Shown here piece by piece: positions 2,532-40,269 of a stretch of DNA of 46,745 nucleotides. Source of the stretch: Actinomycetota bacterium (lineage in GTDB: Bacteria > Actinomycetota > Acidimicrobiia > IMCC26256 > PALSA-610); assembly GCA_034408875.1 (NCBI GenBank), contig JAWXCJ010000011.1, positions 1 to 46,745 on the forward strand, written 5' to 3'. Below the pieces are notes generated by a model that saw only the letters and a list, made by a program, of their open reading frames with translations, did no database searches and had not been told where the DNA came from. Each line of letters begins with the position of its first letter. The first letter of the stretch is position 1. Position numbers and translations under genes: made by a program.

Positions 2532-2539
2532 GCCGCGCC

Positions 2540-11900: not shown

Positions 11901-13285
11901 CGGGGGGCTCCGGGTGCAACAAGCGGCCAGGGACGTTCGCGTTCGGCGGCGAGGGCCATATCGAGCAGCCAGCCTTCGCGGTGATGCGGGGCGAGCACCT
12001 GCAGCCCGACGGGTAGACCGCGCACGGTGCCGACCGGTATCGACAGCGCGGGGCTGCCGTAGATGTTCGCGGGAATGGTCAGCGCGCCGTTGTTGCCGGG
12101 GCTGACCTCGACGCCGTTGACGACGTTCGGGAGCGGCCCCTCCGCGCCGAACGCGACGTCGGGGTTCGTCGACGCGATGACGAAATCGACCTGGTCGAAA
12201 AGGTCGGCCATCGCTTCGTTGGTGCGCACGCGCGTGGCCTCGATCTTCGCCCGCACATCGATGTTGTACATCTTCTCGGCGATGCGCAGGCCGAAGCGAA
12301 TCTCACGCGTGAGGTCGCCCATGCAGTCGGGCCAGAGGTCACCCAAGTCCTTGCGCACTTCGGCGAGACCGGCGAGGGCCCACTCCAAACTCAACTCGGG
12401 CAACTTCACCGGCACGTCGACGAGTTCGAGTCCCCAGGTACGCGCGAGGTCTTCGGCGGCGGCAACGACAGCGGCCGCGACGTCGTCGGCGACGGCCGCG
12501 ACGCCGAGGTCGACGGCGATGACGGCGCGTTTGCCCCGGAGGTCGTACGAACCGAGGCCGGATTCCCAGCCTTCGACGCGCGGAAGGCTGTAGGGGTCGC
12601 GCGAGTCGAATCCGTTGCACACGTCGAGATAGCGCGCCATGTCGCGGACCGAGCGCGAGAGGCATCCGCTCACTGCGGTCAGGGACCCGATGACGAGATC
12701 GGGTCCCTTCGGGATCCGTCCGTAGGTGTTCTTCAGACCGGGAAGGCCGGTGAACGCAGCCGGGATACGAATCGATCCACCGCCGTCACCGCCGGTCGCG
12801 AGCGGGACGAGCCCGCCCGCCACCGCTGACGCGGCACCGCCCGAGGAACCACCGGGTGTGTGGTCGTGGTTCCAGGGATTGAGCGTCGCGCCGTTCAACT
12901 TCGTGAACGTCAGGTTCACACCACCGAACTCGCTCGCAGTCGTGAGACCGACAAGCACGGAGCCCGCGTCTCGCAACCGTTGCACCATCGTGGAGTCGTG
13001 CGTTGCGACGCGGTCGCGCAGTACGACTGACGCCTCGGTCAGCGGCCATCCCGACACGGGCGACAACTCCTTCACGCCGACGGGCACGCCGCCGAACGGC
13101 AACGACACGTCTGCGCGTTCGGCCTCGGCGCGCGCCTCGTCGGGCGCGAGATACGAGAACGCGTTCAGTTCCGAAGCGTCGATCGCCGCGAGTGTCGCGT
13201 CGAGTTCCTCGAGCGGGCTGCGTTCGCCCGCGCGAAACGCGTCGACCAAGCTGCACGCATCTCCCAGCCAGGGCTCACTCGTCAT
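11897..13285 (-). CDS. amidase (amidase-signature family)
   Basis: Signature GGSSGGAASAVAGGLVPLATGGDGGGSIRIPAAF. 462 aa. Its start overlaps the AftD-like stop by 11 nt. Confidence 0.9.
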   Translation of the reverse strand: MTSEPWLGDACSLVDAFRAGERSPLEELDATLAAIDASELNAFSYLAPDEARAEAERADVSLPFGGVPVGVKELSPVSGWPLTEASVVLRDRVATHDSTMVQRLRDAGSVLVGLTTASEFGGVNLTFTKLNGATLNPWNHDHTPGGSSGGAASAVAGGLVPLATGGDGGGSIRIPAAFTGLPGLKNTYGRIPKGPDLVIGSLTAVSGCLSRSVRDMARYLDVCNGFDSRDPYSLPRVEGWESGLGSYDLRGKRAVIAVDLGVAAVADDVAAAVVAAAEDLARTWGLELVDVPVKLPELSLEWALAGLAEVRKDLGDLWPDCMGDLTREIRFGLRIAEKMYNIDVRAKIEATRVRTNEAMADLFDQVDFVIASTNPDVAFGAEGPLPNVVNGVEVSPGNNGALTIPANIYGSPALSIPVGTVRGLPVGLQVLAPHHREGWLLDMALAAERERPWPLVAPGAPR

Positions 13286-16200
13286 GGGGTCGCCACCTGT
13301 CGTCGTCGTTCGCTTCGGGCCGGCTCGGACGAAGTGTACGGAACGTTTCGATCACGGCGTCGGCCCCGAGCAGGGCGAGCGCAAGCCAGCCGAGGGTCCG
13401 GGCCCACGGGAACAACACCGGCCACTCGAAGATCGGGTCGAATTCGTACCGCCGTTGGCCGTACACGATGTACAGCGCGGCGATCCCCAGCAGGAGCGGG
13501 GGCGCGAGCGCCAGCACCACCCGCGCGCGCGGGCGGAGCACGGCGAGCGCGGTGAGCGCGGCCGCGACGACACCGATCCACGGCGCCGCGACCAGCGCCG
13601 CGACCCCGCCTGCCACCACCACGGTCGCGACCCGCGCCCACGTCGGCAGCGGTATCCCGTCGGCGCCGGGCAGCCCGAGCTCGACGTCGGCATCACCTGG
13701 CATGGCAGTCACCACCGTTCGAGCCCGGCGCCAGGTCAGCGCGATCAGAACGCAGCACAGGATCGCGACGCCGAGCGAAATCCACAGTGATGCCCAAACC
13801 CTACGTTGCGGCGTCCAGTCGAGGACGATGTCGAACGAAGTCGCGGTCGGTGTCACATACCAGCCGTTCGCGTATCCGTCGACGAGTTGTGGCGGGCCGA
13901 GGTCGTCGCCCCCCGGCACTCGGGCCGTCCACCCCTCGCTGTGCGACTGCCCGAGTACGAGCCAGAACGGCTCGGTGGCCGCTTCGACTTTGACCGAAAT
14001 GCGCGTACGCCCGTTGTCGGCCACGTGCACGACCGGGGTCGGCGGCGCGCTGGCGGCCCCCGACGTGACGCGACCGTCCTCGGCCGTGAACACCTGATCT
14101 CCGCCATCAGCGGCGAAGACGAGTCGGTCGAGCTCGACGCCCGTGTCGACACCGGACGCGGCCCGGACCACGTGCCGTCCCGGCCCCAGGGTGATCTCTT
14201 CCCGGCACGGTTCGACCGTCAATCGCTCCATGGCCGCCGCCGCGGCCCCCGTGCCGACGATGCGAACCGGAACCGGACGGCCGTCGATGCGCAGCAGATC
14301 GGCGCGACACTCCTCCGAGAGCAGCCGCGGCGGCGCGTCGAGCGTCAATTCGGCGATACCCAGTTCGGCGATGCCCGCCGGTAGTAGGGAGGTGCTGGCG
14401 CCGTCGAGTGTGAATGTGAGCTGTTCGCGTACGTCGACGATCGTGACGCGCACACGGCGACCGGTCATCGGTGCGACGTCGATCGGGATCGCGACCGTCG
14501 AATTCTCGCCCGCCTGGTCCTCGATCGTCGGGAGCACGACGTCGCGAACTTCGTCATCGACTTCGACGCGAAGGCGAGTCGGTACCGAGTGCCTGCCGTC
14601 GGCGATCACCTGGAGATCGAGATGGTCCACGGTCAGCGGGTCCGGCGCAATGAATTCGGCCCACTGACCGCGCACGCCGATGAACGGAGTCTGCCAGGCC
14701 GTCGCCGCGTCACCGTCGATCGCGGCGTCGGCGCGGCAGGCGACGCAGCCCTTCAGGAACTCACGGGCGTCGGTCGAGATCCCGCCCGCTTCCGGCGTCG
14801 GATATCCGAGCGCGCGGTCGATCGCGGCGTGGTCGGCCGCACTCGTGACCCGGGCGTCTCCCGTCACCGTGAACGTGCGCGCCGTAGGGAGCTCGAACTC
14901 GCGCACGATCGCCACTTCCGGGTCGGTGCGCGGTGGGATCGGGACGACCCGCTCCCGATTCATCACGACCACCAACGGATGGTCGACCGAGTCGGCACCG
15001 GTCGCGCCGAGCAGGTCCGTCGGCATCCGCACGACTTCTTCGACGCGCACCGTCCGGTTGCTCACGTCGTCGCGCACGCGCACTTCGGCAAAGCCCACCG
15101 CGTCGGCGCCACCGTGCCAGCGTCGCTTTCCCACATTGACGGCGGACACCTCGATGTCGAGGGTGCGAAACCGGCGTTGGTCGAAACGCAGGCGCTGGCC
15201 TTCGGCGGTGCGGGACGAACCGTCGAGTGTGAATGTCTCGGCCGGACCGCCGTCGAAGCTGACCTGTACCTCGGTGATGAACCGATCGCGTCCACCGGTA
15301 AGCGGTTGTACGACCTCCACTGCGTTCGTCGTGATCGGTTCGTCGAGCACGACGTGCAGGCGTTGCCCGATCGCGGCACCGAAGCCGCCGGCGCGCCAGG
15401 CGGTGGCGGCGTCGCCGTCGAAGGCACGCGCGGCGCGGTCTTCGGACGTGTACGAGATCACGTTGCCGTAAGCGGTCGCGGCGACCCACCGGACACCCTG
15501 CTGGTCGACGACGGTCTGTGCGCTCGGTCGTTCGTCGGGAAACACGTCGAGGCGGGCGTCACCGAGATCGCGGCGCAGTGCTTCCTCGCCCGGTTGTTCG
15601 GTGACGCCGACGTTGTCGAGCACCGAACTCCATTTGCGCGCTCGACGGCGGTTCGAGTCGGTCACGACGAGCAACATGTCGTCGGCAATCGCGTCGCGGA
15701 GCTTCTCGTCGTCGCCGAACGACGCCGAATACTGCACGACGCCGGCGTCATCGAGGAGACCGAGATCGGCGACGTCGACGAGCCCTTCGCCGTCACCGGC
15801 GATCATGACCGCGCGCTCGTCGGACTCGGCCCGCACGATCGGCGCGGGGTCCTCCACCGCGTACACGACCACCGGGCTCGACAACGGCTCGTTCACCGGA
15901 GCCCGCAACGTCAACTCGTCTTCGTGCGGCTTCGCCAACGCCGGTGCGGTCGGTGCGCCGAATGCGCGCGGCGAACCGAGGCCGGGCATTTCAGCGAACG
16001 CCCGCGCCAGTTCACGGTTCGTGATCACGTCGTAGCGTTCGAACTGGATGTCGTTGCGGAGGACCACGGCGCCGACGCCCATGCGCCGAGCGATCGCAGT
16101 GAACCCGCGCTCGTCGAACAGTCCCTCCTGGAGCCGGCGGTCGACCGCGTTGAGGAGATCGGCGGTTCCCGGCCCGCCGTACGGAATGAGCTCGCGCGCG

Positions 16201-17717
16201 ACGTACGGCCGTTCGGTCAGGCCCGGCGTAATCGGGTCGACCGTGTTGCCCCACCGGTAGGACGCAAAGTCGAGCCCCGGAACCTCGAACACGCGCGTGC
16301 CGTCGTCGGTCGCGTCGAGGTAGTCGGCCGCGTCGAGCCAGTACTCAGGAACGTCTTCCGGACGTTGGAGGTTCTTGCCGTAGAAGGTGTCGTCGACCAG
16401 CGCGGGGAAGTTCACGAAGACCAGCGCGACGACGATGCCGACGCTGCTCACCGCGAGGAATGGCCTCGCTCGCCGCCGCAACGCGTCATAGGCCGCGTTC
16501 ACGCCGAGGCCGAGGAACATCGCGGTAGCCAGCACAACAAGGGGTACCGCCCGCCCCGTACTGCGAAGTGCAAGCCCCGCCGTCGACGAGTTCGCGAACG
16601 CCTTGAACACGGCGCCGAGTGGGCTCGGGTCGTCGTACGGGTGTGCGCCAACCGAGATCACGACGCCGACGAGCAAGAGGCCGACGAAGAACACTCGGTG
16701 GCGCCAGCGCACCACCCCCGCCGCCAAGAGCGACAAACACGCGAGTGCATAGCCCGCCAGCAGCACGACCGGTCGCTGCGTGTAGTTGGACGATGCTTCG
16801 ATCCACGGACCGAGCCGGTCCTGCCCGTAGAAGAACCAGTACCCGAGGCCGCGCAGGATCTCGTTCGGTGTCGACGTGAGCGCGACCGCTTCGACCGTCT
16901 CGGTGTACTTCAGCACGTTGAGGCCGTAGCCGCTCTGGATCGACAGGCCCGCGATCCACCACAACGACGTGAAGATCGTCAGCAGCCCGGTCTTGGCCGC
17001 GACCGACAGCGCACGCCGCCACTGCACTTCGCGCGCCACCAACCAGGAGTACGCAATCCACAACACGGGACCGACGCCGGCGAAGATGAGCGCGGTCGCG
17101 TTCACGCCGCCCACGACCTGTACGACAAGGGCGAAGATCGCCGGGTAGCGCCAGCCGCCGTCGCGCAGCGCCTTGCGCATCAACGCGATCATCCACGGCA
17201 GGGCCGCCCACGGCAGCAACAACACCGAGATGCGCGCCGCGTAGTCGAGCGAGTACGGCGTGAGCATGTACGCGAGTGCACCGACAACGACACCGGGCCC
17301 GCGAATGCCGAACGTGCGGAACAGGTAGAGCACGCCCGCGGCTGCGACGAAAAGGATGGAGCCGAGCCAGAGGCGCTGCGCGACCCAGTCGGGAACACCG
17401 AACCGGTCGAACGACCAGTAGAACGGGCCCATCGGGAACAGGTAACCGATCGTCTGGTGGGTGACGGTGCCCATACCGACGTTCGGGTCCCACATGTACG
17501 CGGCCCGGCCCATGAGCCGCGCCGGATCGAGGTAGAGGTATTGCTTCGTGTCCGCCGCGACGAAGCCGGGCGCGGTGCGAAGTGCGGGAACGTACGCGAG
17601 GAGCGCGAGCGCGAGCCATCCGATCGGCTTACGAGGGAGCGTCTGGCCGATCTCGACGGCCCGCGTCACGAAACCGGGGCGCGTTCGAGGGCGCGCGTCC
17701 CCCGAGATCGCAGTCAC
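13275..17717 (-). CDS. AftD-like alpha-(1->3)-arabinofuranosyltransferase family (DUF3367) giant GT-C membrane glycosyltransferase with discoidin/CBM-like repeats
   Basis: N-terminal polytopic region ..FVAADTKQYLYLDPARLMGRAAYMWDPNVGMGTVTHQTIGYLFPMGPFYW.. matches my memory of the AftD family. Two repeats are built around DGDAATAW. C-terminal TM bundle. GTG at 17717 overlaps the GT4 stop (GTGA). The Arg-rich ORF extension to 18029 is rejected. Confidence 0.8.
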   Translation of the reverse strand: MTAISGDARPRTRPGFVTRAVEIGQTLPRKPIGWLALALLAYVPALRTAPGFVAADTKQYLYLDPARLMGRAAYMWDPNVGMGTVTHQTIGYLFPMGPFYWSFDRFGVPDWVAQRLWLGSILFVAAAGVLYLFRTFGIRGPGVVVGALAYMLTPYSLDYAARISVLLLPWAALPWMIALMRKALRDGGWRYPAIFALVVQVVGGVNATALIFAGVGPVLWIAYSWLVAREVQWRRALSVAAKTGLLTIFTSLWWIAGLSIQSGYGLNVLKYTETVEAVALTSTPNEILRGLGYWFFYGQDRLGPWIEASSNYTQRPVVLLAGYALACLSLLAAGVVRWRHRVFFVGLLLVGVVISVGAHPYDDPSPLGAVFKAFANSSTAGLALRSTGRAVPLVVLATAMFLGLGVNAAYDALRRRARPFLAVSSVGIVVALVFVNFPALVDDTFYGKNLQRPEDVPEYWLDAADYLDATDDGTRVFEVPGLDFASYRWGNTVDPITPGLTERPYVARELIPYGGPGTADLLNAVDRRLQEGLFDERGFTAIARRMGVGAVVLRNDIQFERYDVITNRELARAFAEMPGLGSPRAFGAPTAPALAKPHEDELTLRAPVNEPLSSPVVVYAVEDPAPIVRAESDERAVMIAGDGEGLVDVADLGLLDDAGVVQYSASFGDDEKLRDAIADDMLLVVTDSNRRRARKWSSVLDNVGVTEQPGEEALRRDLGDARLDVFPDERPSAQTVVDQQGVRWVAATAYGNVISYTSEDRAARAFDGDAATAWRAGGFGAAIGQRLHVVLDEPITTNAVEVVQPLTGGRDRFITEVQVSFDGGPAETFTLDGSSRTAEGQRLRFDQRRFRTLDIEVSAVNVGKRRWHGGADAVGFAEVRVRDDVSNRTVRVEEVVRMPTDLLGATGADSVDHPLVVVMNRERVVPIPPRTDPEVAIVREFELPTARTFTVTGDARVTSAADHAAIDRALGYPTPEAGGISTDAREFLKGCVACRADAAIDGDAATAWQTPFIGVRGQWAEFIAPDPLTVDHLDLQVIADGRHSVPTRLRVEVDDEVRDVVLPTIEDQAGENSTVAIPIDVAPMTGRRVRVTIVDVREQLTFTLDGASTSLLPAGIAELGIAELTLDAPPRLLSEECRADLLRIDGRPVPVRIVGTGAAAAAMERLTVEPCREEITLGPGRHVVRAASGVDTGVELDRLVFAADGGDQVFTAEDGRVTSGAASAPPTPVVHVADNGRTRISVKVEAATEPFWLVLGQSHSEGWTARVPGGDDLGPPQLVDGYANGWYVTPTATSFDIVLDWTPQRRVWASLWISLGVAILCCVLIALTWRRARTVVTAMPGDADVELGLPGADGIPLPTWARVATVVVAGGVAALVAAPWIGVVAAALTALAVLRPRARVVLALAPPLLLGIAALYIVYGQRRYEFDPIFEWPVLFPWARTLGWLALALLGADAVIETFRTLRPSRPEANDDDRWRPHDE

Positions 17718-18880
17718 ACCGTGCGTTGGCGAATCGCCTCGACGGCAAGCACCTCGAGCGTGCCGCGCGCGGTCGCAGCCCAGGTGAAGGTCGCCGCGTG
17801 CGCCTGCGCGGCGGCACCGAGGCGGGCCCGCAGGTCTCCGTCTTCGATGACGCGCCCGAGCGCCCCCGCGAGTTCTGCAGGGCGGTCGACGAGGAGTCCG
17901 GTCGTGCCGTCGACCACGGCGTCCTCGTGGCCCGCGATGCGCGTGGCGACGGCCGGGGTACCGCACGCACCGGCTTCGGTGACCGTCATGCCCCAGCCTT
18001 CGTGCGCAGACGCGCTGGCGAGCACCCACGCCCGCCGGTACAGCGCGACGAGTTCGCCGTCGGAGAGCCTGCCGGGCAACGCGATCCAGTCTTCGGCGCC
18101 GAGTTCACGGCGGCGCGCTTCGAGTTCGCCGCGCGAGTAGCCCTCGCCGACGAGCATCGCGGTGAGTTCGGGGATGCGCGGCTTGAGTTCGGCGAGCGCG
18201 TCCATCAGCAGATGCATCTGCTTCACGGGCACCAACCGGCCCACTGCGACCACCAACGGCGTCGGCGACTTCGTACCGCCCGGCGCAAACCGGGTGTCGA
18301 CTCCCGGCGGGACCACACTCACGCGCGCGGCCTTGAACTTCAGGCGCTCGACAAGCTCTCGCTTCGACGACTCCGACAAGGTCACGATCGGCGTGCGGCG
18401 ATACAGCGGCGGGGCGACACGGAACTCGACGGCGCGTCCCAGCCGGGCAAGGCGGGGCGGCAACGTCATGTCCCACATCGTGTCGTGCACGTGGTGCAGC
18501 CACGCGACTGTTGGGCGGCGCGCCCACACCGGCGAGAAGAACGGCATGCCGTTCCAGATCTCGACCAGTCCGTCGCTCGCGCCGTGCCAGCCCATCATCT
18601 CGCTGAACGCGGCGCGGGGGAACACGAGGTACCGGCCCGCCTTGCGGATCACGCGGTACCCGTCGCGCCAGCTCACCTGCGGATGGCCCGGTGCGTATGA
18701 CGTGCGCATCGTGACTTCGATGCCCGCCTCGCCCCAGAGCGCCGCGACTTTCGATGCGTGCAGTTCCGAACCGCCGGCCTCCGGATCGTCGAGATCGCGC
18801 CACGCCAGGATCGCGATCCGGCGCAGCCCCGCGTTCGCAGCGATATCACCCAACTTGGCGACGGCCTCGGCTCCGGACAC
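17714..18880 (-). CDS. glycosyltransferase family 4 (GT-B, retaining type)
   Basis: C-terminal EX7E region EGWGMTVTEAGACGTPAVATRIAGHEDAVVDGTTGLLV. N-terminal IAILAWRDLDDPEAGGSELH. Confidence 0.9.
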   Translation of the reverse strand: MSGAEAVAKLGDIAANAGLRRIAILAWRDLDDPEAGGSELHASKVAALWGEAGIEVTMRTSYAPGHPQVSWRDGYRVIRKAGRYLVFPRAAFSEMMGWHGASDGLVEIWNGMPFFSPVWARRPTVAWLHHVHDTMWDMTLPPRLARLGRAVEFRVAPPLYRRTPIVTLSESSKRELVERLKFKAARVSVVPPGVDTRFAPGGTKSPTPLVVAVGRLVPVKQMHLLMDALAELKPRIPELTAMLVGEGYSRGELEARRRELGAEDWIALPGRLSDGELVALYRRAWVLASASAHEGWGMTVTEAGACGTPAVATRIAGHEDAVVDGTTGLLVDRPAELAGALGRVIEDGDLRARLGAAAQAHAATFTWAATARGTLEVLAVEAIRQRTV

Positions 18881-19834: not shown

Positions 19835-19856
19835 GACGAAGTACGGAGGCAGCGCA

Positions 19857-20588: not shown

Positions 20589-20626
20589 CGGGGACTTTCG
20601 CGACCCGACTGGTAGCGTCCGCGCCC

Positions 20627-25151: not shown

Positions 25152-25170
25152 GCCGGCGTGTAACACTCGC

Positions 25171-26635: not shown

Positions 26636-27018
26636 GCTTGTTCTTCTTGTTCGCCGCGGAGGATGGCTACCTCCTCCGCGAGGACTCGGGTGCGTTCTTC
26701 GAGGCGGGAGAGTTCCCACGAGAAGTAGACGCACACGAGCGTGAGGAACGCGATGCCGCCGATGAACAGGGTGCTCGGCGCGTAGTAGATGTCGAGCCAC
26801 TGCGACGTGCGGTCGAGGCCGTCGGGATAGACGGCGAGGATCAGGACGATCGCGCCGACGAACATCCACAGCAGCGTGTACTTCCCGCGCATCTGCCGTT
26901 TGCGGAGCATGCGGAGCAGGAACCACGCGCCGATCAGCGCAACGAGGAACACGACCACGTGCGCGCGGAAGCTGAGCCCGAGTTGTTCCTCGGAGGTCTG
27001 GGCGAGGAGTCCGTTCAC
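26614..27018 (-). CDS. DUF2304-type small membrane protein (partner of the GT2)
   Basis: 134 aa with 3-4 TM spans, central YPDGLDRTSQWLDI and a C-terminal coiled charged tail LSRLEERTRVLAEEVAILRGEQ. GTG start with a GGAAGGAG Shine-Dalgarno. Confidence 0.7.
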   Translation of the reverse strand: MNGLLAQTSEEQLGLSFRAHVVVFLVALIGAWFLLRMLRKRQMRGKYTLLWMFVGAIVLILAVYPDGLDRTSQWLDIYYAPSTLFIGGIAFLTLVCVYFSWELSRLEERTRVLAEEVAILRGEQEEQAGVDSPP

Positions 27019-27084
27019 GAGAATGGCTCCTTCCGCTCCCGCTCGAACGGCCTGCGGCTAACGGAGCTCCGCTGCATCCGCACG

Positions 27085-32943: not shown

Positions 32944-34205
32944 TTCTTCGGCACCGGTCGGAACCAGTGCTTCAGCGGAATATCCCGCCGGCGGTTGATC
33001 GGCTTCTCCAGCGCGTACCACGACGCCACCGCGCACACGACGCTCAGCGCGACCGCGATGCCGGTGATCAGAAGGAAGTTGGCGTGGAGCGGCCGGCTGT
33101 CGGTGTACTCCATCGCGTTGTCGGTCCAGCCCTGGTGCCAGAGGTAGACGCCGTACGACACCAGGCCAACGTACGCGATGGGTTTCCATTGGAGAAACCA
33201 CCGAACGCCGCCGCGGCCCTGGGCTCCGAAGACGCCGGGGAGTAAGAGACATACGACGATGGCCGCGTTCATGAAGTGCCGCGCCTCCGCCTTCATGGGC
33301 GAGACGTACGCCAGGCCCTTCGTTCCGAGCACGCCGCTGTAGATCACGAACAGCCCGAGCGCCGCGGCCCACCACCAGCTGCCGAGCGCGCCGATGCGAC
33401 GCAACCAGCCCGGTTCACCGGCGCGCGCCAACCGCCACGAGGCAATCACCGCGACACCCATCCCCAGCGCGAAGTAGTCGGCGTACCCGGGAAACCACTG
33501 CACCGCCGCACACGCCAGGTGCGCGTCGCCGGTGACCGCCTGCGCGACGCACTGGCGGCGTTCGTCCTCGAAGAGCAACTCGATGGCCAGTCGCCACACC
33601 GCGCTCCCGACCACCACCGCCCCGAGCGCGTAGAACTCGAGCTTCACCTTCTCGCCGAGCGCGCGCCCCGACGTGAAGCGGGCCACCGCGTACGCGTACA
33701 ACGGGAGCAACAGGTAAAACACGAACTCGACGTTCAGCGTGTACGCCGACGTGATGCCGTGGAAGAACCAGTCGGGGTTGTAGGTCTGGGCGAACCCGAA
33801 GATCGCGAGGCCGTCGCGCCATCCGTCGACCTTCAGCCCACCCGAGAGCGGGTCGTTCGGATCGGCGCGAAAGAACAACATCAACAACGCGAGGGTGATC
33901 CAGTAGGCCGGGACGACGCGCAACAGCCGGGTTCGTACGAAGCGGCCCCACCGTTGTGGTGTTCTGTCGAGCAGGTTCGCCGACACGAACGGCTGATACA
34001 GCAGGAACGACGACAGCACGAAGAACATCGTCGGCCCGAGTTCGAGGTGACCCATCCACCCGAACCCGGCGCGCGCCTGGAGACCCGTCGTGTAGCCGGT
34101 GTGCTGGAAGAACAGCGCCATCACGCCGATGGTGCGTAGTCCTTCGAGCGACGGATAGTGCGGCCGCAAGGTTGCAGCCGGCGGAGCGACAACCGCGTCG
34201 CTCAT
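32940..34205 (-). CDS. acyltransferase family 3, copy 1 of 3
   Basis: LEGLRTIGVMALFFQH, FFVLSSFLLYQPF, RVVPAYW, YTLNVEFVFY and SYGVYLWH. Confidence 0.85.
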   Translation of the reverse strand: MSDAVVAPPAATLRPHYPSLEGLRTIGVMALFFQHTGYTTGLQARAGFGWMGHLELGPTMFFVLSSFLLYQPFVSANLLDRTPQRWGRFVRTRLLRVVPAYWITLALLMLFFRADPNDPLSGGLKVDGWRDGLAIFGFAQTYNPDWFFHGITSAYTLNVEFVFYLLLPLYAYAVARFTSGRALGEKVKLEFYALGAVVVGSAVWRLAIELLFEDERRQCVAQAVTGDAHLACAAVQWFPGYADYFALGMGVAVIASWRLARAGEPGWLRRIGALGSWWWAAALGLFVIYSGVLGTKGLAYVSPMKAEARHFMNAAIVVCLLLPGVFGAQGRGGVRWFLQWKPIAYVGLVSYGVYLWHQGWTDNAMEYTDSRPLHANFLLITGIAVALSVVCAVASWYALEKPINRRRDIPLKHWFRPVPKK

Positions 34206-34209
34206 GCGC

Positions 34210-35730
34210 CTACGTGTGCGGGCGCGGGAGGAGTGGCGCTTCCCGCCCGGTCCCTCGTCCCGATGCTGACGCCTCTTCGTGGTACTCGGCTTCGACGTTC
34301 ACGGACCACACGTCGTGGTCGGCGCCGAGGATGTTCTCCACCGACAACATCGCGGTCAGCATCGAGTGGTCCTGGTTGTTGTACTTGTGCATGCCGTTGC
34401 GGCCGCACGGATACACGTTGGAAGTGTTGGCGTCGATCCACTTGCGCACAGTCGTCACGCTGTCTTCGTAGATGTCGTCGTACACGGGGTACGCCTTCGG
34501 CATGCGCACGACGTATCCGGCCTCGACCTTGTCGGGATGCGTGATGAGCTTCAGTTCGTGGAGCTCACGCTTGCCCTGCTCGATCAGGTCGGTGTCGGCC
34601 TTGGTCCACATGGAGTCGCCCTCGTTCACGAAGTATTCGAGTCCGAGGCAGGTGCGGCCTTCCTTCACCATCGACGGCGACCAGGAGCCGTAGTTCTGTA
34701 CCCGCCCGACCTCGACTTCCGGGTCGTGGATGTAGATCCAGTTGTCGGGGAACGAGAACTCCTGCGGGACGACGAGCGCGACTGTGAGGTGGTCGCGGTA
34801 GCGAAGCGCCCGCGCCGCACCGCGCGTGACATCGTCGACGGGCGGATCCATCGCGAGGGACAGCGCACCGAACGGCATCGACGAGATCACATGCGTGCAC
34901 GGGTACGTGTGCACCGTGCCTTGCTCGTCGGCGGCGTCGACTTCGTACGCGATTCCGTCACGGTGACGAATCGCAGTCACCTTCCGGCCGAACACGACGT
35001 TCACGCCCGCGGCCGTGACCTTCTCGGTCGCCCGTTCCCACATCATCCCGGGCCCGAAGCGCGGGTAGTTGAACTCTTCGATGAGGCTCGTGACCTGTTT
35101 CGACTTGTCGCGCTTGCGACGCAGGAATTTCGGTGTGAGTGCTTCGACGACGGCGCGGAACATGGAGAGGTTCTTGATGCGCTGCGCGCCCCAGTCGGAG
35201 GAGATCTCCGAGGCCGGCACACCCCACACCTTCTTGTTGTACGTCTCGAAGAAGTGACCGTAGAGCCGGCGCCCGAAGCGGGCGATGATGAACCCCTCCA
35301 GGGTGTCCTGGTTCTTCGGCGGGCGGATGCGGGCCCACACGTACGAAAAGCCACAGCGCACCGCCTCGATGAGCCCGAGGCTCCGCAGCGCGTTCATCGC
35401 GACGAACGGGTAGTCGATCAGCTTGCCGCGGTAGTAGATGCGACTCTGGCGCGGCCGCTGCAGGAAGTCCTCCTCGCCGAGGATCTCGAACCAGAGGTCG
35501 TCGACGACTTGCACCTTGGTGAAGAAGCGGTGCCCGCCGATGTCGAACCGCCAGCCGTCGCGCTCCTCGGTGCGGCTGATGCCGCCGACGATGTGGTCGG
35601 CTTCGAGCACGGTGACGGCGCGCGCGTGTCCGGCTTTCACGAGTTGGTAAGCAGCGGTCAGTCCGGCCGGACCCGCGCCGATGACCACGACCGCGAGGTT
35701 TGGGACGGAGAGATCAGGGCGTTCACTCAC
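34210..35730 (-). CDS. FAD/NAD(P)-binding oxidoreductase (amine-oxidase / UDP-galactopyranose-mutase-like fold)
   Basis: Dinucleotide motif VVVIGAGPAGLTAAYQL...VLEADHIVGGISRT, then RFDIGGHRFF. GTG at 35730; the ORF extension to 35982 is rejected. Only 4 nt separate it from the next gene. Confidence 0.8.
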   Translation of the reverse strand: MSERPDLSVPNLAVVVIGAGPAGLTAAYQLVKAGHARAVTVLEADHIVGGISRTEERDGWRFDIGGHRFFTKVQVVDDLWFEILGEEDFLQRPRQSRIYYRGKLIDYPFVAMNALRSLGLIEAVRCGFSYVWARIRPPKNQDTLEGFIIARFGRRLYGHFFETYNKKVWGVPASEISSDWGAQRIKNLSMFRAVVEALTPKFLRRKRDKSKQVTSLIEEFNYPRFGPGMMWERATEKVTAAGVNVVFGRKVTAIRHRDGIAYEVDAADEQGTVHTYPCTHVISSMPFGALSLAMDPPVDDVTRGAARALRYRDHLTVALVVPQEFSFPDNWIYIHDPEVEVGRVQNYGSWSPSMVKEGRTCLGLEYFVNEGDSMWTKADTDLIEQGKRELHELKLITHPDKVEAGYVVRMPKAYPVYDDIYEDSVTTVRKWIDANTSNVYPCGRNGMHKYNNQDHSMLTAMLSVENILGADHDVWSVNVEAEYHEEASASGRGTGREAPLLPRPHT

Positions 35731-35774
35731 GGCGCGCGCGGTGTATTCCAGGACCCGTGTGGTAAACGGACGGG

Positions 35775-36281
35775 GTGCTGACCCGGCGACGCCCCTCGCT
35801 CCGAATGTTTCTTTCCCTTGTCGCGCTGTGTTGGCTCGCGGGTGCGTGCTCGACGCCCGAAACCGGGTCCGACAACCTCGCAACCGGCAAGGCGCGCGTC
35901 CAGGATCTGCTGCACGAGGCACTGGCGACGCTGCCCGAAGATTCCGACTACGTCGTACCGGCCGAGCCGGGCCGGCAGACATGTCGCAAGACGTTTCTCG
36001 GCTACGCAGTCGGCACCACCGGCGCGCACCGGGCCGAGATCCCGACGATCGTCGACCTCCCGTCCGGGTCCGACCCGGCCGAACGGCTCACCGAGATCGA
36101 AGCAGTGTGGCGCGACGCAGGCTACGACGTCACCCGGCCGCGCACGGCCGACGGTCGGTTCCCGAAAGTGCAGGCAACAGTCGACGACTACCGCGTCGTG
36201 ATGACGGCATTCATCGATCAACTTCCTGATGTTCCGCCGCGAGTGACGGTGTACGCGGTGTCTCCCTGCTTGGACTCCTGA
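35775..36281 (+). CDS. hypothetical lipoprotein
   Basis: Signal peptide with lipobox ..MFLSLVALCWLAGAC-STPE. High GC3. No recognisable domain. The start could be the internal ATG at 35805. Confidence 0.6.
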   Translation: MLTRRRPSLRMFLSLVALCWLAGACSTPETGSDNLATGKARVQDLLHEALATLPEDSDYVVPAEPGRQTCRKTFLGYAVGTTGAHRAEIPTIVDLPSGSDPAERLTEIEAVWRDAGYDVTRPRTADGRFPKVQATVDDYRVVMTAFIDQLPDVPPRVTVYAVSPCLDS

Positions 36282-37611
36282 CGCGCTCGATAACAGCGAC
36301 GATCGCGACGGCAGCGAGAATTGCCAGCGATGGTTCCGCGGCGGCGCGGAACCGGGTTTGCCCGTAACTGACCATCGCGCCGACGGTCACGCATAGCGCG
36401 GGAACGAGAAGCACCCAGAGCGTGCGCCGGTGCTTCGCCCTCCACAGAAGGACCGCGCCGTAGATCGCGGCGAGCAGGGTCGGGTAGTACGCAACGAGCC
36501 CGAGGCGCGTGACCCAGCGTTCGCGTCCTTCGCCTTCGTTGAACGACACCATGTCGAGCGGGCGATACACGCTCCAGGTCCGCCCGACACGAGCCGCGAG
36601 GACGACGGGAACGCGACCTGCGTGATCCTGCGCGTACTCGAACGCGCGCTCCCGGTACACCTGCGCGACCTCTGACTGGTCGCCGGGCGGGTGCGGCGTG
36701 TCGATACACGCGTCGGGCCCGGTGATCGCGGTGAGCCCGATGGCCGGGCCCGAGTACACCGGATCACAGTTGGATCCGGCGAGCGCGATGCCGTCGTTCG
36801 TCGACAATGTCGTCGGTTCCTCGAAGCGGGCGCCGTTGTAGAGCACCCACGGCGCGACGACGATGCCGCTCGCGACCAACGCGACCACCGCGAGTACGCG
36901 CCGGTTCCCGGCCGCGGTCCAAGCCACGGGTACCGCGAGTAGGGGTACGAATAACACCAGCTCCGCGCGGGCGAGTCCCGCGAGTCCGCACACCGCGCCC
37001 AGCGCGGCGACGCGTCCCGGTGTCGGGCGGTCCCATGCCGCGAATGCAAGCAGCATCGCCCCGACGACGGTCAGGCCGGTCACCGTTTCCGACATGACGA
37101 GCCCGTCGTTCACCCAGAGGTTCGGGGTGACGGCGGCGATCACGCCCGCGACGATGCCGACCGTGTCGCCACGGACCCGTCGGCCGAGCAGCGCGATCAT
37201 CCCGACCAGCGCGGTTCCCAGCACCACCATCGCCCAGCGGTGATGCGTGAGATGCGTGTCGTCGTCGATCCATTCGAGCGGCGGTCTGTCGGCGAACCAC
37301 GACACGGGCGCGAGCACCATCGCGGTGAGCGGGGGGTGGTCGGCGGCGGGCGCGGGATCGACGCTGCGGTCGAACGGCTCGACGAATCCGTCGCCCTCCG
37401 CCAGGCGGTTGGCCGCGGCGTTGTAGAAGAGTTGGTCGCCGACCGCGCACTCGGTGGGGATGTCGCCCACGATCGGATTCGGGCACGGCCCTTGCTTGCC
37501 GAACCCGACGTACGCGACCCGCACGCCCGCGGCGAGGACCAGGATCAGCAGCAGCGCGCGCGTGAAGGTGCGGACGGAGCGGAGCCACGGACGGCGCAGC
37601 GAGGGAGCCAT
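36211..37611 (-). CDS. ArnT/GT39-like (PMT_2) membrane glycosyltransferase, third paralogue
   Basis: Shares the VGDQLFYNAAANRLAEGDGF loop, the ..LWVNDGLVMSE.. block and ..YNGARFEEPTTLSTNDG..SNCDP.. with 20627-22052 and 22049-23419. ATG at 37611; the ORF extension to 37764 is rejected. Confidence 0.7.
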   Translation of the reverse strand: MAPSLRRPWLRSVRTFTRALLLILVLAAGVRVAYVGFGKQGPCPNPIVGDIPTECAVGDQLFYNAAANRLAEGDGFVEPFDRSVDPAPAADHPPLTAMVLAPVSWFADRPPLEWIDDDTHLTHHRWAMVVLGTALVGMIALLGRRVRGDTVGIVAGVIAAVTPNLWVNDGLVMSETVTGLTVVGAMLLAFAAWDRPTPGRVAALGAVCGLAGLARAELVLFVPLLAVPVAWTAAGNRRVLAVVALVASGIVVAPWVLYNGARFEEPTTLSTNDGIALAGSNCDPVYSGPAIGLTAITGPDACIDTPHPPGDQSEVAQVYRERAFEYAQDHAGRVPVVLAARVGRTWSVYRPLDMVSFNEGEGRERWVTRLGLVAYYPTLLAAIYGAVLLWRAKHRRTLWVLLVPALCVTVGAMVSYGQTRFRAAAEPSLAILAAVAIVAVIERVRSPSRETPRTPSLAAEHQEVDR

Positions 37612-37621
37612 GGTTATGGGC

Positions 37622-38746
37622 TCACGGGACGAGGATGCCCGTGAACGCGAGGACTGCCGCGACGACCAGGCCCGCGGCCGCGAGCACGAGTACGACGCGT
37701 TCGGCGTCGGGCGCGTCGGTGACGTCGGCGCCCGCGAGCAGGAACGGCAACGTCGACAAGCCATAGCGTTCGAGCGAGTCGAGGTTGCTCGCGCTCAGCG
37801 CGAGCACCAGTACCGCGCCCGCGTAGCACGAGTACGAGGCGGGCCAACGCCGGATCAACACGACGAGGAGCACAATCAGCAGCATCGCCGCGACCACGTG
37901 GACACCCGCGCTCACGCGATCCGCGCCCGCGTCGCGTGCGGCGTCGATGACGTTGGTCACCGGGAACTTCCAACTCCCCCGCCGTTCGGGGTCCTCCTGC
38001 ACGCGCAACGGATAGAGGAACCCGTCGCCCCGGTCAGAGGCCCACGCGAGGTACGTGAAGAGCCCCGCAAATGGGGCGACAACCGCGGTGATGCGCCCGC
38101 CGAGCTCGGCGCGCGTCATGGTGCGGCGGTGCTGGATGACCTCGACGAGCGCCGGTACCGCGAGCAGCACACCCACGGGGCGCGCGAGCCCGGCGAGGTA
38201 ACCGGTGACTGCAGCCAACCACCATCGGCGCGAGCGCAACGCGAGCAAGGTGAGCGCAGCGAGCAGCATCACGGTCGCTTCGGCGTACCCCATGACGAGG
38301 ACGAATGCGGGGGGAACGAGATACGCGAGCCACACGGCGCGCCGGGCGAACGCTTCGTCGCCCCGTTCGCGCCACGCCAGCGCGTAGAACACGAAACCGA
38401 ACGCGAGCGCGCTGAGGTTCGCGATGAGGAGCACCCCGAGCTCGGCGTCGACACCGGGCAGCAACGCGACGACCCGCCCGAGCAGCGCCACGAGCGGGAA
38501 GAAGCGCAACCCCTCGGCGGCGACGCCGTCGTAACCGCTCGCGGCGATGTCGCGGTAGAACGCGGCATCCCACGCCATGAGGCCCTGGTCGATCTGGATC
38601 GGTACCGGCGAGACGTGTAGTTGCTCGACGAGGTGGCGCGAGATAGCCAGTGCGCCGCCGACGAGGACGCGCGCGAGGACGAACGGCACCAGCACTGCAC
38701 GCGCGACATCGGCGCGCGGGACCAGTCCCCGACCGTCGCCTCTCAC
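37622..38746 (-). CDS. polytopic membrane protein, PIG-V/GT76-like mannosyltransferase family (tentative)
   Basis: WDAAFYRDIAASGYDGVAAEGLRFFPLVALLGR resembles the Mannosyl_trans2 N-terminal motif as I recall it. About 8-9 TM spans. GTG at 38746 overlaps the upstream stop (GTGA). The ORF extension to 40153 is rejected. Confidence 0.5.
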   Translation of the reverse strand: MRGDGRGLVPRADVARAVLVPFVLARVLVGGALAISRHLVEQLHVSPVPIQIDQGLMAWDAAFYRDIAASGYDGVAAEGLRFFPLVALLGRVVALLPGVDAELGVLLIANLSALAFGFVFYALAWRERGDEAFARRAVWLAYLVPPAFVLVMGYAEATVMLLAALTLLALRSRRWWLAAVTGYLAGLARPVGVLLAVPALVEVIQHRRTMTRAELGGRITAVVAPFAGLFTYLAWASDRGDGFLYPLRVQEDPERRGSWKFPVTNVIDAARDAGADRVSAGVHVVAAMLLIVLLVVLIRRWPASYSCYAGAVLVLALSASNLDSLERYGLSTLPFLLAGADVTDAPDAERVVLVLAAAGLVVAAVLAFTGILVP

Positions 38747-40269
38747 GTCGGTGGGAGCCGGAACTCGATGAGTCCCGGCTTCTCGAAGAACTTCTCTTCC
38801 GGAATGACGCGCTCGACCCGCTCGCGTGAGGCGGAGAACCGGTCGGTGATGGCTTCGCACACGCCGTGGTGGTTCGGGTACCCCGGACCCGTCACGTACC
38901 AGATGCGATGGTCGCCGGCGCGCGCGAAGACCTCGTCGACAAACGCGTCGGGATCGGCCGCGTCGAGCCGTTCCTGGTAGTCGACCCAGTCGACGAGTTC
39001 GGGCCCGGCGAGGTCGGGATACGTGAGCTGGAGCAACCCGGCCGGGCCGACGCGCTCGACCGCGGGCCCGAGCTGGTCGGGGCAGTACACGACGACGTCG
39101 CCCGGCTGGGCCTCGGCCACGAGGACTGCGCCGACCGCGCCCGCCTGGGTGCGCTGTTCGGTCACGTTGCGGGCACCGCCCAACCAGCCGAGCGCGACGA
39201 CGAGCACGAGTACGGCGACCTGGACCCGGGCATCGACGAAGGTCGTGACGCCCCGCGCCACCAGCAGCACGAAGAACGGGAACACGATCGCGCTGTACCT
39301 CGGCTCGAACGCCTGACCCGCGAGGTAACTGAGCGTGACGCCGACCACCAACGTCGCACCGCCGACGAGTGCGGTCCAGCGCGCTTCGGGCGCACCGTGA
39401 ATATCCAGCTCGACCCGCCGGCTGTCGATCGCGCGCCCGAAGACGCCGAGCAGCATGAGCGGCACGAGGATCAGCAGCAGCAACCAGCCCTCTTGTTCCT
39501 CGCCGCCGCCGAACTCGAGGAAGGTCTCGCCGATCGGAAGCCCGGGCAACACCGGGTCGCCCCACGGTGTGCCGGTGTGCGCCCGTTGCGAAAGGAAGAT
39601 CGGCACCCACGGCGCGAACAACACGACCCCGACCGCCATGGCCGCGAACACGCGCCACTGCTTCACGATCAGGAATACGAGGCCGACGACGCCGACGAGA
39701 TAGAACGCCCAGTACTGCGTGTACACGAGCAGCGTCGCGATGAGCGTGACGACCGCGAGCCGGCCGACGGTCGGCCGCTCGATCGCCCGGAGCACGGCGA
39801 GGATCCCGCACGCGACGAGCAGGATCTCGAGCATGTACATGCGGGCCTCGGTCGCGTACCGGATCGTGAACGGGTTGGCCGCCATGACGACGACGGCGAT
39901 CCACGCGCCGCGCGTGCCGGCCGGGCGCCGCGCTGCGAACCACGTCGCGACAACCGCACCGGCTGCGAACAGCGCCGAGAGCGAGCGGGCCGCGACGTCG
40001 CCCGAACCGAACAGCCCCGTCCACACGTGGAGGAGCACGTAGTACAGCGGTGGTGCGCCGTCGCGTTCGAGCGCGTCGGGCAGATCGCCGAGCGGGAGGC
40101 GGGCGATGTTGACCGACAGCGCCTCGTCGAGCCACATGTCGGAACGCGTCCACGAAAAGAACGCCGCGCCCGCAAGCACCACGATCGCGATCGCAGCGGG
40201 ATAGAACCGGCGCAGCGGCCCCTCGTGCTCGACGGGCTCGCGCGCGGGCGCGTCGGAGACGAGCGTCAC
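38743..40269 (-). CDS. ArnT/GT39-like lipid-carrier-dependent membrane glycosyltransferase with a C-terminal soluble domain
   Basis: Early loop SDMWLDEALSVNIARLP (Asp-Glu motif of the GT-C family) and about 11 TM spans. The soluble C-terminal ~150 aa include VVVYCPDQLGPAVER... 508 aa. Confidence 0.7.
   Translation of the reverse strand: MTLVSDAPAREPVEHEGPLRRFYPAAIAIVVLAGAAFFSWTRSDMWLDEALSVNIARLPLGDLPDALERDGAPPLYYVLLHVWTGLFGSGDVAARSLSALFAAGAVVATWFAARRPAGTRGAWIAVVVMAANPFTIRYATEARMYMLEILLVACGILAVLRAIERPTVGRLAVVTLIATLLVYTQYWAFYLVGVVGLVFLIVKQWRVFAAMAVGVVLFAPWVPIFLSQRAHTGTPWGDPVLPGLPIGETFLEFGGGEEQEGWLLLLILVPLMLLGVFGRAIDSRRVELDIHGAPEARWTALVGGATLVVGVTLSYLAGQAFEPRYSAIVFPFFVLLVARGVTTFVDARVQVAVLVLVVALGWLGGARNVTEQRTQAGAVGAVLVAEAQPGDVVVYCPDQLGPAVERVGPAGLLQLTYPDLAGPELVDWVDYQERLDAADPDAFVDEVFARAGDHRIWYVTGPGYPNHHGVCEAITDRFSASRERVERVIPEEKFFEKPGLIEFRLPPT

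Follow-up and report, generated by a model that had tools for sequence, protein, structure and literature searches.

A fixed six-gene core with a variable insert in a GT-C-rich, putative envelope glycan locus of an uncultured microbial-mat actinobacterium

The assembly of arabinogalactan (AG) and of lipomannan and lipoarabinomannan (LM/LAM) in mycobacteria and corynebacteria, which involves Ppm1, PimE/Mpt, Emb, AftA-D and Glf, is rich in GT-C-type membrane enzymes fed by polyprenyl-phosphate sugars. The locus described here is of similar character, with such feeding presumed, and occupies positions 13275-40269 (27 kb) of contig JAWXCJ010000011.1; "the window" denotes the whole 46,745-nt stretch that was analysed. 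The host is an uncultured microbial-mat actinobacterium. Eight polytopic proteins of the locus are assigned by sequence and structural modelling to the GT-C type, with putative use of polyprenyl-phosphate or polyprenyl-pyrophosphate donors on the outer face of the membrane, and the locus is modular, a variable insert being placed inside a fixed core. With moderate confidence, it is read as a modular pathway, dependent on polyprenyl-phosphate sugars, that would assemble and decorate an envelope glycoconjugate on that outer face. A spread of AftD homologues across 12 orders of the class Actinobacteria has been reported (Tan et al.), and the presence of one is in itself not new; what is new is a fixed six-gene core that includes a UDP-galactopyranose-mutase (UGM)-like enzyme, and the variable cassette inside this core.

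Several other systems share parts of this logic. The ArnC-ArnD-ArnT pathway, through which lipid A receives 4-amino-4-deoxy-L-arabinose, combines loading of an N-acylated aminosugar onto polyprenyl phosphate by a GT2 enzyme, removal of the acyl group by a deacylase and transfer by an ArnT/PMT_2-like enzyme. In Francisella, FlmF2-NaxD-FlmK follows the same logic of lipid-linked aminosugar modification. In the three-component systems (GtrB/GtrA/GtrX, CsbB/GtcA/YfhO, GacI-GacJ/GacK/GacL and PpgS-Rv3632/Rv3779) the features shared with the present locus are a soluble GT2 enzyme and an adjoining three-helix DUF2304 protein, followed by GT-C enzymes, and the DUF2304 proteins GacJ and Rv3632 have been shown experimentally to stimulate GacI and PpgS (bioRxiv 10.1101/180810). 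Lactococci have three GT2/GT-C pairs, each of which decorates a polymer of its own, and a flippase encoded elsewhere serves several systems (PMC8035078); lactococcal proteins of the WpsI/WpsJ type carry DUF2142 (PMC12599335). Finally, the pentofuranose systems comprise a polyprenyl-phosphoribose synthase, a MATE flippase and a GT136 GT-C enzyme, with a donor derived from phosphoribosyl pyrophosphate (PRPP) via a UbiA-like synthase; here a lipid-linked furanose is added outside the cytoplasm by a GT-C enzyme with a carbohydrate-binding module (Kelly et al. 2024, PMC11127046).

The window has a GC content of 65-71% and its genes were mapped from third-codon-position GC, which reproduced nearly all the coordinates of an earlier prediction made from the letters of this DNA (the original prediction); the three departures, a split gene, a moved start and a missed small gene, are described below. 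Families were observed with Pfam, orthologue level was judged by NCBIfam equivalog cut-offs (for ten GT-C and GT2 proteins and for the tailoring proteins other than three acyltransferases), and folds were modelled with AlphaFold2 and compared with the PDB by Foldseek. Transmembrane (TM) segments were counted by hydropathy scan, a crude method that gives approximate numbers, and all statements of absence refer to the 46.7-kb window only and not to the rest of the genome. The original prediction had counted at least seven GT-C-like proteins within 27 kb. Eight were found, by Pfam, fold search or family-level Pfam, each with 7-11 predicted TM segments, so that every polytopic protein that it listed is of GT-C type. 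They account for 8/21 genes in 13275-40269 (24 genes if the locus reaches 42812), about twice the density of the mycobacterial AG cluster, and the Poisson chance of at least eight among 24 genes is 4e-15 to 2e-10 for an assumed background of 0.25-1% GT-C genes. The ten GT-C and GT2 proteins all score below the NCBIfam equivalog cut-offs (for example, 22.7 bits against 800 for Pmt and 17 against 900 for MT1671), and so do the tailoring proteins scanned, except for matches to the general families NF005548 and TIGR03560. Judged by sequence, the locus is not a member of any characterised pathway, and gene-for-gene orthology to one was not seen.

The synteny comparison that the original prediction had proposed shows six core genes, conserved in the related loci L008, L009 and L010, with a seventh gene nearly always beside them:

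37622-38746, minus strand: GT87/PIG-V-like small GT-C-type protein, 374 aa, core (family-level Pfam).
34210-35730, minus strand: UGM-like flavoenzyme, 506 aa, core (NCBIfam NF005548, FAD/amine-oxidase fold).
19857-20588, plus strand: GT2a, soluble protein resembling polyprenyl-phosphate hexose synthases of the DPM1/Ppm1/AglJ type, core (Pfam Glycos_transf_2, 8e-28).
19037-19834, plus strand: S-adenosylmethionine-dependent methyltransferase, core (Pfam Methyltransf_11, 4e-15).
17714-18880, minus strand: cytoplasmic GT4 (retaining GT-B), core, with a 4-bp overlap with the AftD-like gene (Pfam Glycos_transf_1, 6e-33, and Glyco_transf_4).
13275-17717, minus strand: AftD-like giant GT-C-type protein, 1480 aa, core (Pfam GT-C_AftD, 1.3e-110, with F5_F8_type_C and CBM_AftD).
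38743-40269, minus strand: PMT2_d, PMT_2-family GT-C-type protein, near-core (Pfam PMT_2, 8e-9).

In the core-only loci L008-L010 the order is luciferase-like oxidoreductase, PMT2_d where present, GT87-like protein, mutase-like enzyme, GT2a, methyltransferase, GT4, AftD-like protein and an ABC-F protein. PMT2_d, which is 56-63% identical to its orthologues in L001, L007 and L008 and is also present in L009, is absent only from L010, and the invariant core therefore consists of six genes. Proteins shared with L008 are 56-82% identical to those of the window, and the methyltransferase orthologues adjoin GT2a in L001, L008, L009 and L010.

The remaining genes of the locus are inserted at two places inside this core, the first 12 of the following between the mutase-like gene and GT2a and the last two between the GT87-like and mutase-like genes:

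20627-22052, plus strand: PMT2_a, PMT_2-family GT-C-type protein, accessory (Pfam PMT_2, 9e-12, 45.9 bits, on the N-terminal part 20627-21553).
22049-23419, plus strand: PMT2_b, PMT_2-family GT-C-type protein, in the window and L002 only (Pfam PMT_2, 2e-9; about 7 TM segments).
23416-24339, plus strand: GNAT-like putative N-acyltransferase (tentative), accessory (Pfam Acetyltransf_9).
24363-25151, plus strand: CE4 de-N-acetylase of polysaccharide or lipid-linked sugar, accessory (Pfam Polysacc_deac_1, 1.4e-21, and DUF3473, 1.3e-23).
25171-26592, plus strand: HpaB-family flavoenzyme of acyl-CoA-dehydrogenase fold, accessory (Pfam HpaB_N, 3e-71, and HpaB, 3e-47).
26614-27018, minus strand: DUF2304 three-helix membrane protein, presumed activating partner of GT2b, accessory (Pfam DUF2304, 1e-23; three TM segments).
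27085-27807, minus strand: GT2b, soluble protein resembling polyprenyl-phosphate (N-acetyl)hexosamine synthases of the PpgS/GacI/ArnC type, accessory (Pfam Glycos_transf_2, 3e-22).
27882-29231, plus strand: DUF2142 polytopic protein of GT-C fold, accessory (Pfam DUF2142, 1.6e-51).
29136-30536, minus strand: Pfam-less protein of GT-C fold, 466 aa, accessory (AlphaFold2 pLDDT 92.4 and Foldseek).
30533-31642, minus strand: acyltransferase-3 paralogue 1, membrane O-acyltransferase, extra copy specific to the window (Pfam Acyl_transf_3, 2e-23).
31639-32943, minus strand: acyltransferase-3 paralogue 2, orthologue of the single such enzyme in L001 and L005 (Pfam Acyl_transf_3, 4e-24).
32940-34205, minus strand: acyltransferase-3 paralogue 3, extra copy specific to the window (Pfam Acyl_transf_3, 1e-14).
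35784-36281, plus strand: small conserved putative lipoprotein (lipobox LAGAC), 48% identical to a 165-aa L001 gene product at the same position and orientation.
36211-37611, minus strand: PMT2_c, PMT_2-family GT-C-type protein (Pfam PMT_2, matched on the reading frame 36211-37764).

This main insert, of ~13 genes, is found in the window, L001, L002 and L005, in the same order as far as each contig reaches. L001 (a 25.8-kb metagenome contig whose proteins are 43-79% identical to those of the window) and L005 (a contig of a metagenome-assembled genome, MAG) carry nearly the whole array, with one PMT_2 gene in place of the PMT2_a/PMT2_b tandem and one acyltransferase-3 gene in place of three, and L002 spans the part of the insert from the Pfam-less GT-C gene to PMT2_a. 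In L007, different genes occupy the same insert site. Some genes appear as shorter matches or split calls (HpaB, GNAT-like and methyltransferase in L005; mutase-like, GT4 and AftD-like in L008), which suggests assembly frameshift errors rather than real pseudogenes.

The same layout raises the speculation that the region is not one pathway but a hot spot of independent glycosylation cassettes, each serving a different envelope polymer. The genes fall into at least six transcription units on alternating strands; the core occurs without the insert in L008-L010, the insert site holds other content in L007, the Pfam-less GT-C gene stands alone in L004, and the lactococcal GT2/GT-C pairs each serve a different polymer. 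Nevertheless, in L001 and L005 the whole insert is retained in the same gene order at 43-79% protein identity, and it lies inside the core rather than beside it, so that a hot spot is judged rather unlikely.

Among the core proteins, the AftD-like protein, named as such in the original prediction and matched by Pfam at 1.3e-110, is a likeness to AG and LM/LAM assembly. As in AftD, a GT-C_AftD domain is joined to carbohydrate-binding modules and a C-terminal helical bundle: the N-terminal GT-C domain is followed by periplasmic carbohydrate-binding modules and C-terminal TM helices (7 N-terminal and 3 C-terminal segments), and residues 34-826 match M. abscessus AftD (6w98) at 2e-40. Five residues, K39, D41, E251, K361 and D474, are essential in AftD (Tan et al.). 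K39, E251 and D474 are identical in the AftD-like protein, K361 is conservatively replaced by R, and D41 is replaced by Y, in an alignment that took the PDB chain numbering as native +3, which fits E251, K361 and D474. A DTK motif is the candidate for an acidic residue in the first extracytoplasmic loop. Orthologues in L009 and L010 have 1472 and 1478 aa, and split gene calls of one are found in L008. The second core GT-C-type protein, of 374 aa, has no Pfam match of its own in the window; 25/39 of its relatives match PIG-V and 23/39 match GT87, so that the PIG-V-like label of the original prediction holds at family level. It has more than 1180 homologues, the best 120 of which are 48-73% identical, some being named Acidimicrobiia.

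Both GT2 proteins have zero TM segments and resemble, in sequence, the GT2 branch that loads sugars onto polyprenyl phosphate, in agreement with the two donor synthases first proposed, one with a DUF2304 partner. GT2a residues 1-224 match the catalytic domain of P. furiosus dolichyl-phosphate-mannose (Dol-P-Man) synthase (5mlz) at 2e-34, followed by ArnC, and its best NCBIfam matches are AglJ, dolichyl-P-hexose transferase and PpgS, all under cut-off. The single cytoplasmic GT4 of the original prediction was borne out by Pfam and by the finding of zero TM segments. Its best NCBIfam match is MshA (119 bits against 462) and its best PDB match C. glutamicum MshA (3c4q) at 2e-25.

These core families open the possibility of an LM/LAM-type lipoglycan, a specific version of the pathway proposed here, in which the acceptor would be a lipid, GT4 would act as PimA/MgtA, GT2a as Ppm1 and the GT87-like protein as PimE/Mpt, with the AftD-like protein adding a furanosyl domain. 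GT87/PIG-V-like and AftD-like families occur together, GT2a is closest to Dol-P-Man synthase, GT4, nearest the MshA type, is the sole cytoplasmic Leloir transferase besides the donor synthases, and no polyprenyl-pyrophosphate primer, polymerase or exporter is encoded in the window. In addition, a role of Ppm1 in lipoglycan synthesis is established (PMC3485146). However, no score to any mycobacterial enzyme is at orthologue level, no Emb-type arabinosyltransferase domain was found in the window, and none of its genes carries the UbiA or DprE1/DprE2 domains of decaprenyl-phosphate-arabinose supply. Moreover, the locus has families additional to those of AG and LM/LAM assembly (DUF2142, Pfam-less GT-C, HpaB, CE4 and three acyltransferase-3 proteins), and the mutase-like enzyme is foreign to LM/LAM synthesis. 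A lipoglycan of this kind is regarded as somewhat unlikely.

The mutase-like enzyme had been listed among the tailoring genes as an FAD oxidoreductase, a label that did not stand; being mutase-like, it more likely serves donor synthesis than glycan tailoring, and mutase activity itself is putative. It scores 710 bits against a cut-off of 389 for NF005548, a family named only "hypothetical protein", and its best PDB matches are UGMs of the eukaryotic type, from T. cruzi (4dsg, 1.4e-21 over the full length) and then A. fumigatus. Residues 97-555 align with residues 11-455 of the T. cruzi enzyme, with conservation of the stretches GAGPAGL, DiGGH, YNxKVW, KxYP and NQDHS, which are taken here to include the FAD Rossmann motif, the histidine loop (GGH) and stretches that bind substrate. 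The long open reading frame (ORF) runs over 34210-35982, and the start is likely the GTG at 35730 because the orthologues have 505-506 aa. A UGM-type mutase in the cluster is a further likeness to AG assembly, although the enzyme here is of the long, eukaryote-like type.

One bolder proposal builds on this enzyme: the core may represent an undescribed route to a lipid-linked hexofuranose donor, in which the mutase would supply a UDP-furanose such as UDP-galactofuranose, GT2a would load it onto polyprenyl phosphate and the AftD-like protein would polymerise it outside the membrane, giving a furanan polymer without the PRPP-derived decaprenyl-phosphate-arabinose pathway. This is considered distinctly improbable. 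It resembles the pentofuranose systems in the extracytoplasmic addition of a lipid-linked furanose, here only presumed, by a GT-C protein with a carbohydrate-binding module, but the locus has a UGM-like mutase and a Dol-P-Man-synthase-like GT2 enzyme, and neither an enzyme of the PRPP route nor a MATE flippase is encoded in the window. If true, uncultured Actinomycetota, lineages labelled Acidimicrobiia among them, would have an envelope polymer that contains a furanan.

In the insert, GT2b and its DUF2304 neighbour adjoin one another in the window and in L001, L002, L003 and L005. PDB matches of GT2b are Dol-P-Man synthase (1e-12), ArnC (1.6e-10) and GtrB, and its best NCBIfam match, below orthologue level, is PpgS, the mycobacterial polyprenyl-phosphate-N-acetylgalactosamine synthase (104.5 bits against a cut-off of 370). 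The pair recalls the three-component systems, from which the locus differs in having eight GT-C proteins to two synthases rather than one-to-one pairs and in the absence of a GtrA-, Wzx- or MATE-type flippase from the window. The latter is not decisive, since the lactococcal flippase is encoded elsewhere and serves several systems.

The DUF2142 protein that follows was modelled with a pLDDT of 90, and its top Foldseek matches are ArnT (probability 1.0), STT3, AftA, ALG12 and AftB. Convergent with it lies the 466-aa protein that the original prediction had recognised as polytopic and left unassigned. It has no Pfam or NCBIfam match, and the top PDB folds matched by its model are all GT-C (STT3, AglB, PglB, ALG3, ArnT, Pmt4, Emb and AftB, with TM-scores of ~0.43-0.46). 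For both proteins the E-values of the fold matches are weak, 2e-4 and 5e-3, at TM-scores of 0.3-0.46. An alignment was built from 38 relatives of the 466-aa protein. An exhaustive profile search for the family found 3042 representative clusters at E<=1e-3, and one remote member matches PMT_2. An initial view of a very rare family, based on a word-indexed search (39 proteins, 5/~185,000 species genomes), was overturned by these 3042 clusters. The assignment of this family of ~3000 representative clusters to the GT-C fold, based on the model, is new. Residues after the first helix that are acidic and invariant or nearly so are D44 in the Pfam-less protein (GYGPDS motif), D20/E21 in the DUF2142 protein and D60 in the GT87-like protein; they are candidates for the acidic residue of the first extracytoplasmic loop.

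Some further observations concern the Pfam-less family. Its relatives P0188, P0195, P0202 and P0213 are ~970-1000 aa long, the profile matching P0188 and P0195 in three stretches, P0202 in two and P0213 in one, and P0213 bears a C-terminal Sulfatase domain of the LtaS/EptA type. In L004, the homologue is surrounded by Zn-dehydrogenase, FHA-domain, Ser/Thr kinase and protease genes, with no glycosyltransferases nearby. The DUF2142 and Pfam-less genes are neighbours in 5/6 loci. Their 3' ends overlap by 96 bp in the window (29136-29231); at the same junction in L001 (11327-11425) a 99-bp overlap is called between genes whose proteins are only 43-46% identical to those of the window, and the model of the 466-aa protein has its lowest confidence in the C-terminal tail encoded by the overlap.

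The side-chain arrangement of the insert bears on another explanation, namely that the product is a peptidoglycan-linked wall polysaccharide, AG-like or rhamnose-rich, whose backbone is primed and exported by genes elsewhere, the window holding those for extracytoplasmic extension and side chains. The GT2-DUF2304-GT-C arrangement is as in GacI/GacJ/GacL side-chain addition, a role as polymerase or transferase has been put forward for the DUF2142 proteins of wall polysaccharide loci in lactococci and streptococci, and UGM-type mutases are characteristic of wall glycans that contain galactofuranose. In mycobacteria, glf lies within the AG cluster and the priming enzyme WecA is encoded elsewhere. 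The layout of a core with a variable region is likewise typical of wall-polysaccharide loci (PMC9574508). On the other hand, the 46.7 kb contain no gene for a cytoplasmic polymerising transferase that would build the backbone, for an ABC exporter or for an LCP ligase, and the ratio of GT-C to Leloir transferases (8:3) is unlike that of known wall-polysaccharide loci; this explanation is regarded as somewhat unlikely.

Four of the eight GT-C-type proteins belong to PMT_2, as the four ArnT/GT39-like genes of the original prediction, with 45.9, 38.3, 26.6 and 36.4 bits for PMT2_a to PMT2_d against a cut-off of 26.1. PMT2_b is a tandem paralogue of PMT2_a (37% identity), where L001 and L005 have a single copy, and PMT2_c, with orthologues in L001, L005 and L007, is 32-37% identical to both. 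The acyltransferase-3 paralogues are similarly divergent (36% between 1 and 2, 31-33% between 3 and the other two), and paralogue 2 is 59% identical to the single enzyme of L001 and of L005. Since PMT2_a, b and c are mutually 32-37% identical and the acyltransferases 31-36%, both sets of paralogues are, as judged from sequence divergence, old.

A single additional A, within an A-run at ~21498-21503, interrupts PMT2_a in the window (TM segments 5+3). Read without one A it gives 474 aa with zero internal stops, four independent assemblies of the same population (X1, X2, X3 and X5) have one base fewer at 21500/21501, and the orthologues in L002 and L001 are single frames. A pseudogene is ruled out by the four other assemblies and the in-frame L002 orthologue; these, with the 474-aa read-through, indicate from the sequences that the gene is intact in nature and that the additional base of the window is an error of the consensus or else a rare variant. 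The run is an A6 tract (21498-21503) in 68%-GC DNA, and three of the four base-short assemblies also read G for A at 21500; the extra A would stem from an error of the consensus or from slippage in a minority variant.

The number of PMT_2 genes also raises the possibility of protein O-glycosylation, in which these proteins would act as Pmt on secreted proteins or lipoproteins with polyprenyl-phosphate-mannose from GT2a, and the other GT-C proteins would extend the glycan. Besides the four genes, a Ppm1-like GT2a and a conserved lipoprotein gene inside the locus are consistent with it. However, the actinobacterial Pmt equivalog (NF058602) is matched at 22.7 bits against a cut-off of 800, the PMT family PF02366 at 20.9 bits, under its cut-off of 22.7, and there is no PMT_4TMC domain; PMT_2 also includes ArnT-type enzymes that act on lipids or glycans, and the carbohydrate-binding modules of the AftD-like protein point to a glycan acceptor. 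Protein O-glycosylation is, on balance, very unlikely.

As regards tailoring, the methyltransferase, CE4 enzyme, three acyltransferase-3 proteins and HpaB-family enzyme of the original prediction were all recovered, while the GNAT is weak. The last has no NCBIfam match and no meaningful PDB match, and its gene is kept at the same position in L001 (61%) and L002 (90%). The CE4 enzyme belongs to an arrangement like that of ArnC-ArnD-ArnT, with GT2b, CE4 and PMT2_a/PMT2_b within ~7 kb (20627-27807). However, its best NCBIfam match is the XrtA-system polysaccharide deacetylase TIGR03006 (187 bits against 276) and not ArnD (19 against 382), a Gram-positive-type phylum has no lipid A as acceptor, and the GNAT-like and HpaB-family proteins have no Arn counterpart. 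The HpaB-family enzyme matches vinylacetyl-CoA isomerase (5e-61), 4-hydroxybutyryl-CoA dehydratase (2e-58) and T. thermophilus HpaB (2e-57) in the PDB. A role as 4-hydroxybutyryl-CoA dehydratase, supplying an acyl donor for the GNAT-like protein, was considered and rejected, the Fe-S cysteines being missing: at the presumed [4Fe-4S] ligand positions of the dehydratase (AbfD; three Cys and one His), the Cys are replaced by P/S, E and Y, the His alone being retained.

The pathway that is proposed with moderate confidence can be outlined as follows, its donor identities, order of steps, membrane side, acceptor and product being drawn from knowledge of the families; what the analysis itself shows are the assignments to families and folds, the gene order and its conservation. 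GT4 would start a glycan or glycolipid primer in the cytoplasm, and the mutase-like enzyme and GT2a would make a lipid-linked sugar donor. The GT87/PIG-V-like and AftD-like proteins would then extend the glycan outside the membrane, and the methyltransferase would modify or cap it. Where the insert is present, GT2b and DUF2304 would make a second donor, probably a polyprenyl-phosphate-N-acetylhexosamine, from which CE4, following ArnD/NaxD logic, may remove the N-acetyl group, with possible re-acylation by the GNAT-like protein. The DUF2142, Pfam-less, PMT2_a, PMT2_b and PMT2_c proteins would add side chains, PMT2_d travelling with the core, and the three membrane acyltransferases would O-acylate the product. 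As acceptor, a lipid anchor, a wall polysaccharide and a protein are all conceivable. The extracytoplasmic elongation and decoration envisaged by the original prediction is thus supported, in the refined form of a modular core and insert and with the locus extended to ~42812. The close packing of the genes, with many 4-bp overlaps, speaks for this pathway as well.

A number of observations weigh against this pathway. As drawn it is incomplete in the window, whose genes include neither a flippase (GtrA, Wzx, MATE or ArnE/F type) nor a priming transferase or an exporter; for none of them did Pfam return Wzx, Wzy, ABC2_membrane, Bac_transf or Glycos_transf_4, in keeping with the original prediction that Wzx/Wzy, Wzm/Wzt and a priming phosphotransferase are lacking, and the ABC proteins on the left flank are of Liv type and ABC-F. 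These components may be encoded elsewhere in the genome. The loss of the essential D41 from the AftD-like protein is a second point, and two family calls barely exceed their thresholds, those of PMT2_c (26.6 bits against 26.1) and of the GNAT-like protein (26.9 against 25). Alignments by hhalign among the DUF2142, GT87-like and Pfam-less families and the PMT_2 paralogues gave probabilities of 1-57%, too weak to use. In addition, a homologue of the Pfam-less GT-C protein (38% identity; L004 9881-11290, on a 4.6-Mb MAG chromosome) lies in a non-glycan context, and adjacent modules of the locus could serve different polymers.

Knowledge of the carrier lineages, some of which are labelled Acidimicrobiia, comes entirely from metagenomes (mats, soils and waters). 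Sequence near-identical to the window is present in many microbial-mat metagenome runs, while a search for transcripts brought up no RNA runs; its closest relative is the soil MAG L002, labelled "Actinomycetes bacterium", with proteins mostly 88-96% identical, and remoter relatives of the core genes carry the labels Acidimicrobiia or Actinomycetota. Searches of the accessible literature found no description of Acidimicrobiia envelope glycans or of a polyprenyl-phosphate-galactofuranose/GT-C route, and none relevant to PRK07208. The locus offers a concrete, conserved six-gene target for finding such an envelope polymer, and exemplifies, in nature, a fixed core whose decoration cassette is exchangeable. 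To our knowledge, AftD relatives outside mycolate bacteria have no assigned function, and the fixed pairing of one with a mutase-like enzyme, a GT2 and a GT4 is a testable lead on that function.

Three further genes lie upstream of PMT2_d:

41739-42812, minus strand: Zn-dependent dehydrogenase with a glucose-dehydrogenase-like C-terminus, first gene of a probable operon 42812->36211 (Pfam ADH_N, ADH_zinc_N and Glu_dehyd_C).
41260-41742, minus strand: conserved 160-aa protein, with 4-bp overlaps with both neighbours.
40289-41263, minus strand: F420-dependent luciferase-like oxidoreductase (Pfam Bac_luciferase, 3e-50; NCBIfam TIGR03560, 248 bits against 231).

In the compared loci these genes are always directly upstream on the same strand. 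The Zn-dehydrogenase is 74-76% identical at the same position in L007 and L008, and the 160-aa protein, which has no Pfam or NCBIfam match, is 66-70% identical there. With this conservation and with 4-bp overlaps or short gaps in the window, the operon probably runs from 42812 to 36211, past the right boundary first drawn, and possibly includes the F420-dependent oxidoreductase. The lipoprotein gene, which the original prediction had missed, lies on the opposite strand between the mutase-like and PMT2_c genes, and the long-ORF versions of both neighbours overlap it.

At the other end, ABC-F directly follows the AftD-like gene in the minimal loci. In the window, three minus-strand genes (10884-13285) lie between them, an amidase gene (11897-13285) and two small genes without family match (10884-11406 and 11514-11900), marking a second point of insertion, of smaller size. 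Neither Rfam nor tRNA scanning of the window gave a match. Further to the left, at 2503-7676 on the plus strand, are two tandem, unusually fused transporter ORFs with a 4-bp overlap. The first (776 aa) joins MFS_1 at residues 119-459 to an ABC ATPase at residues 555-698, and the second (948 aa) joins two BPD_transp_2 (LivH/LivM-type) permease stretches to a LivG-type ATPase. Near the right end, at 45148-46699 on the minus strand, a partial sigma factor of the extracytoplasmic function type (region 4, 46283-46699, running towards the window end) is followed downstream by a 327-aa protein that has no family match and a single predicted membrane segment, and which is possibly an anti-sigma factor.

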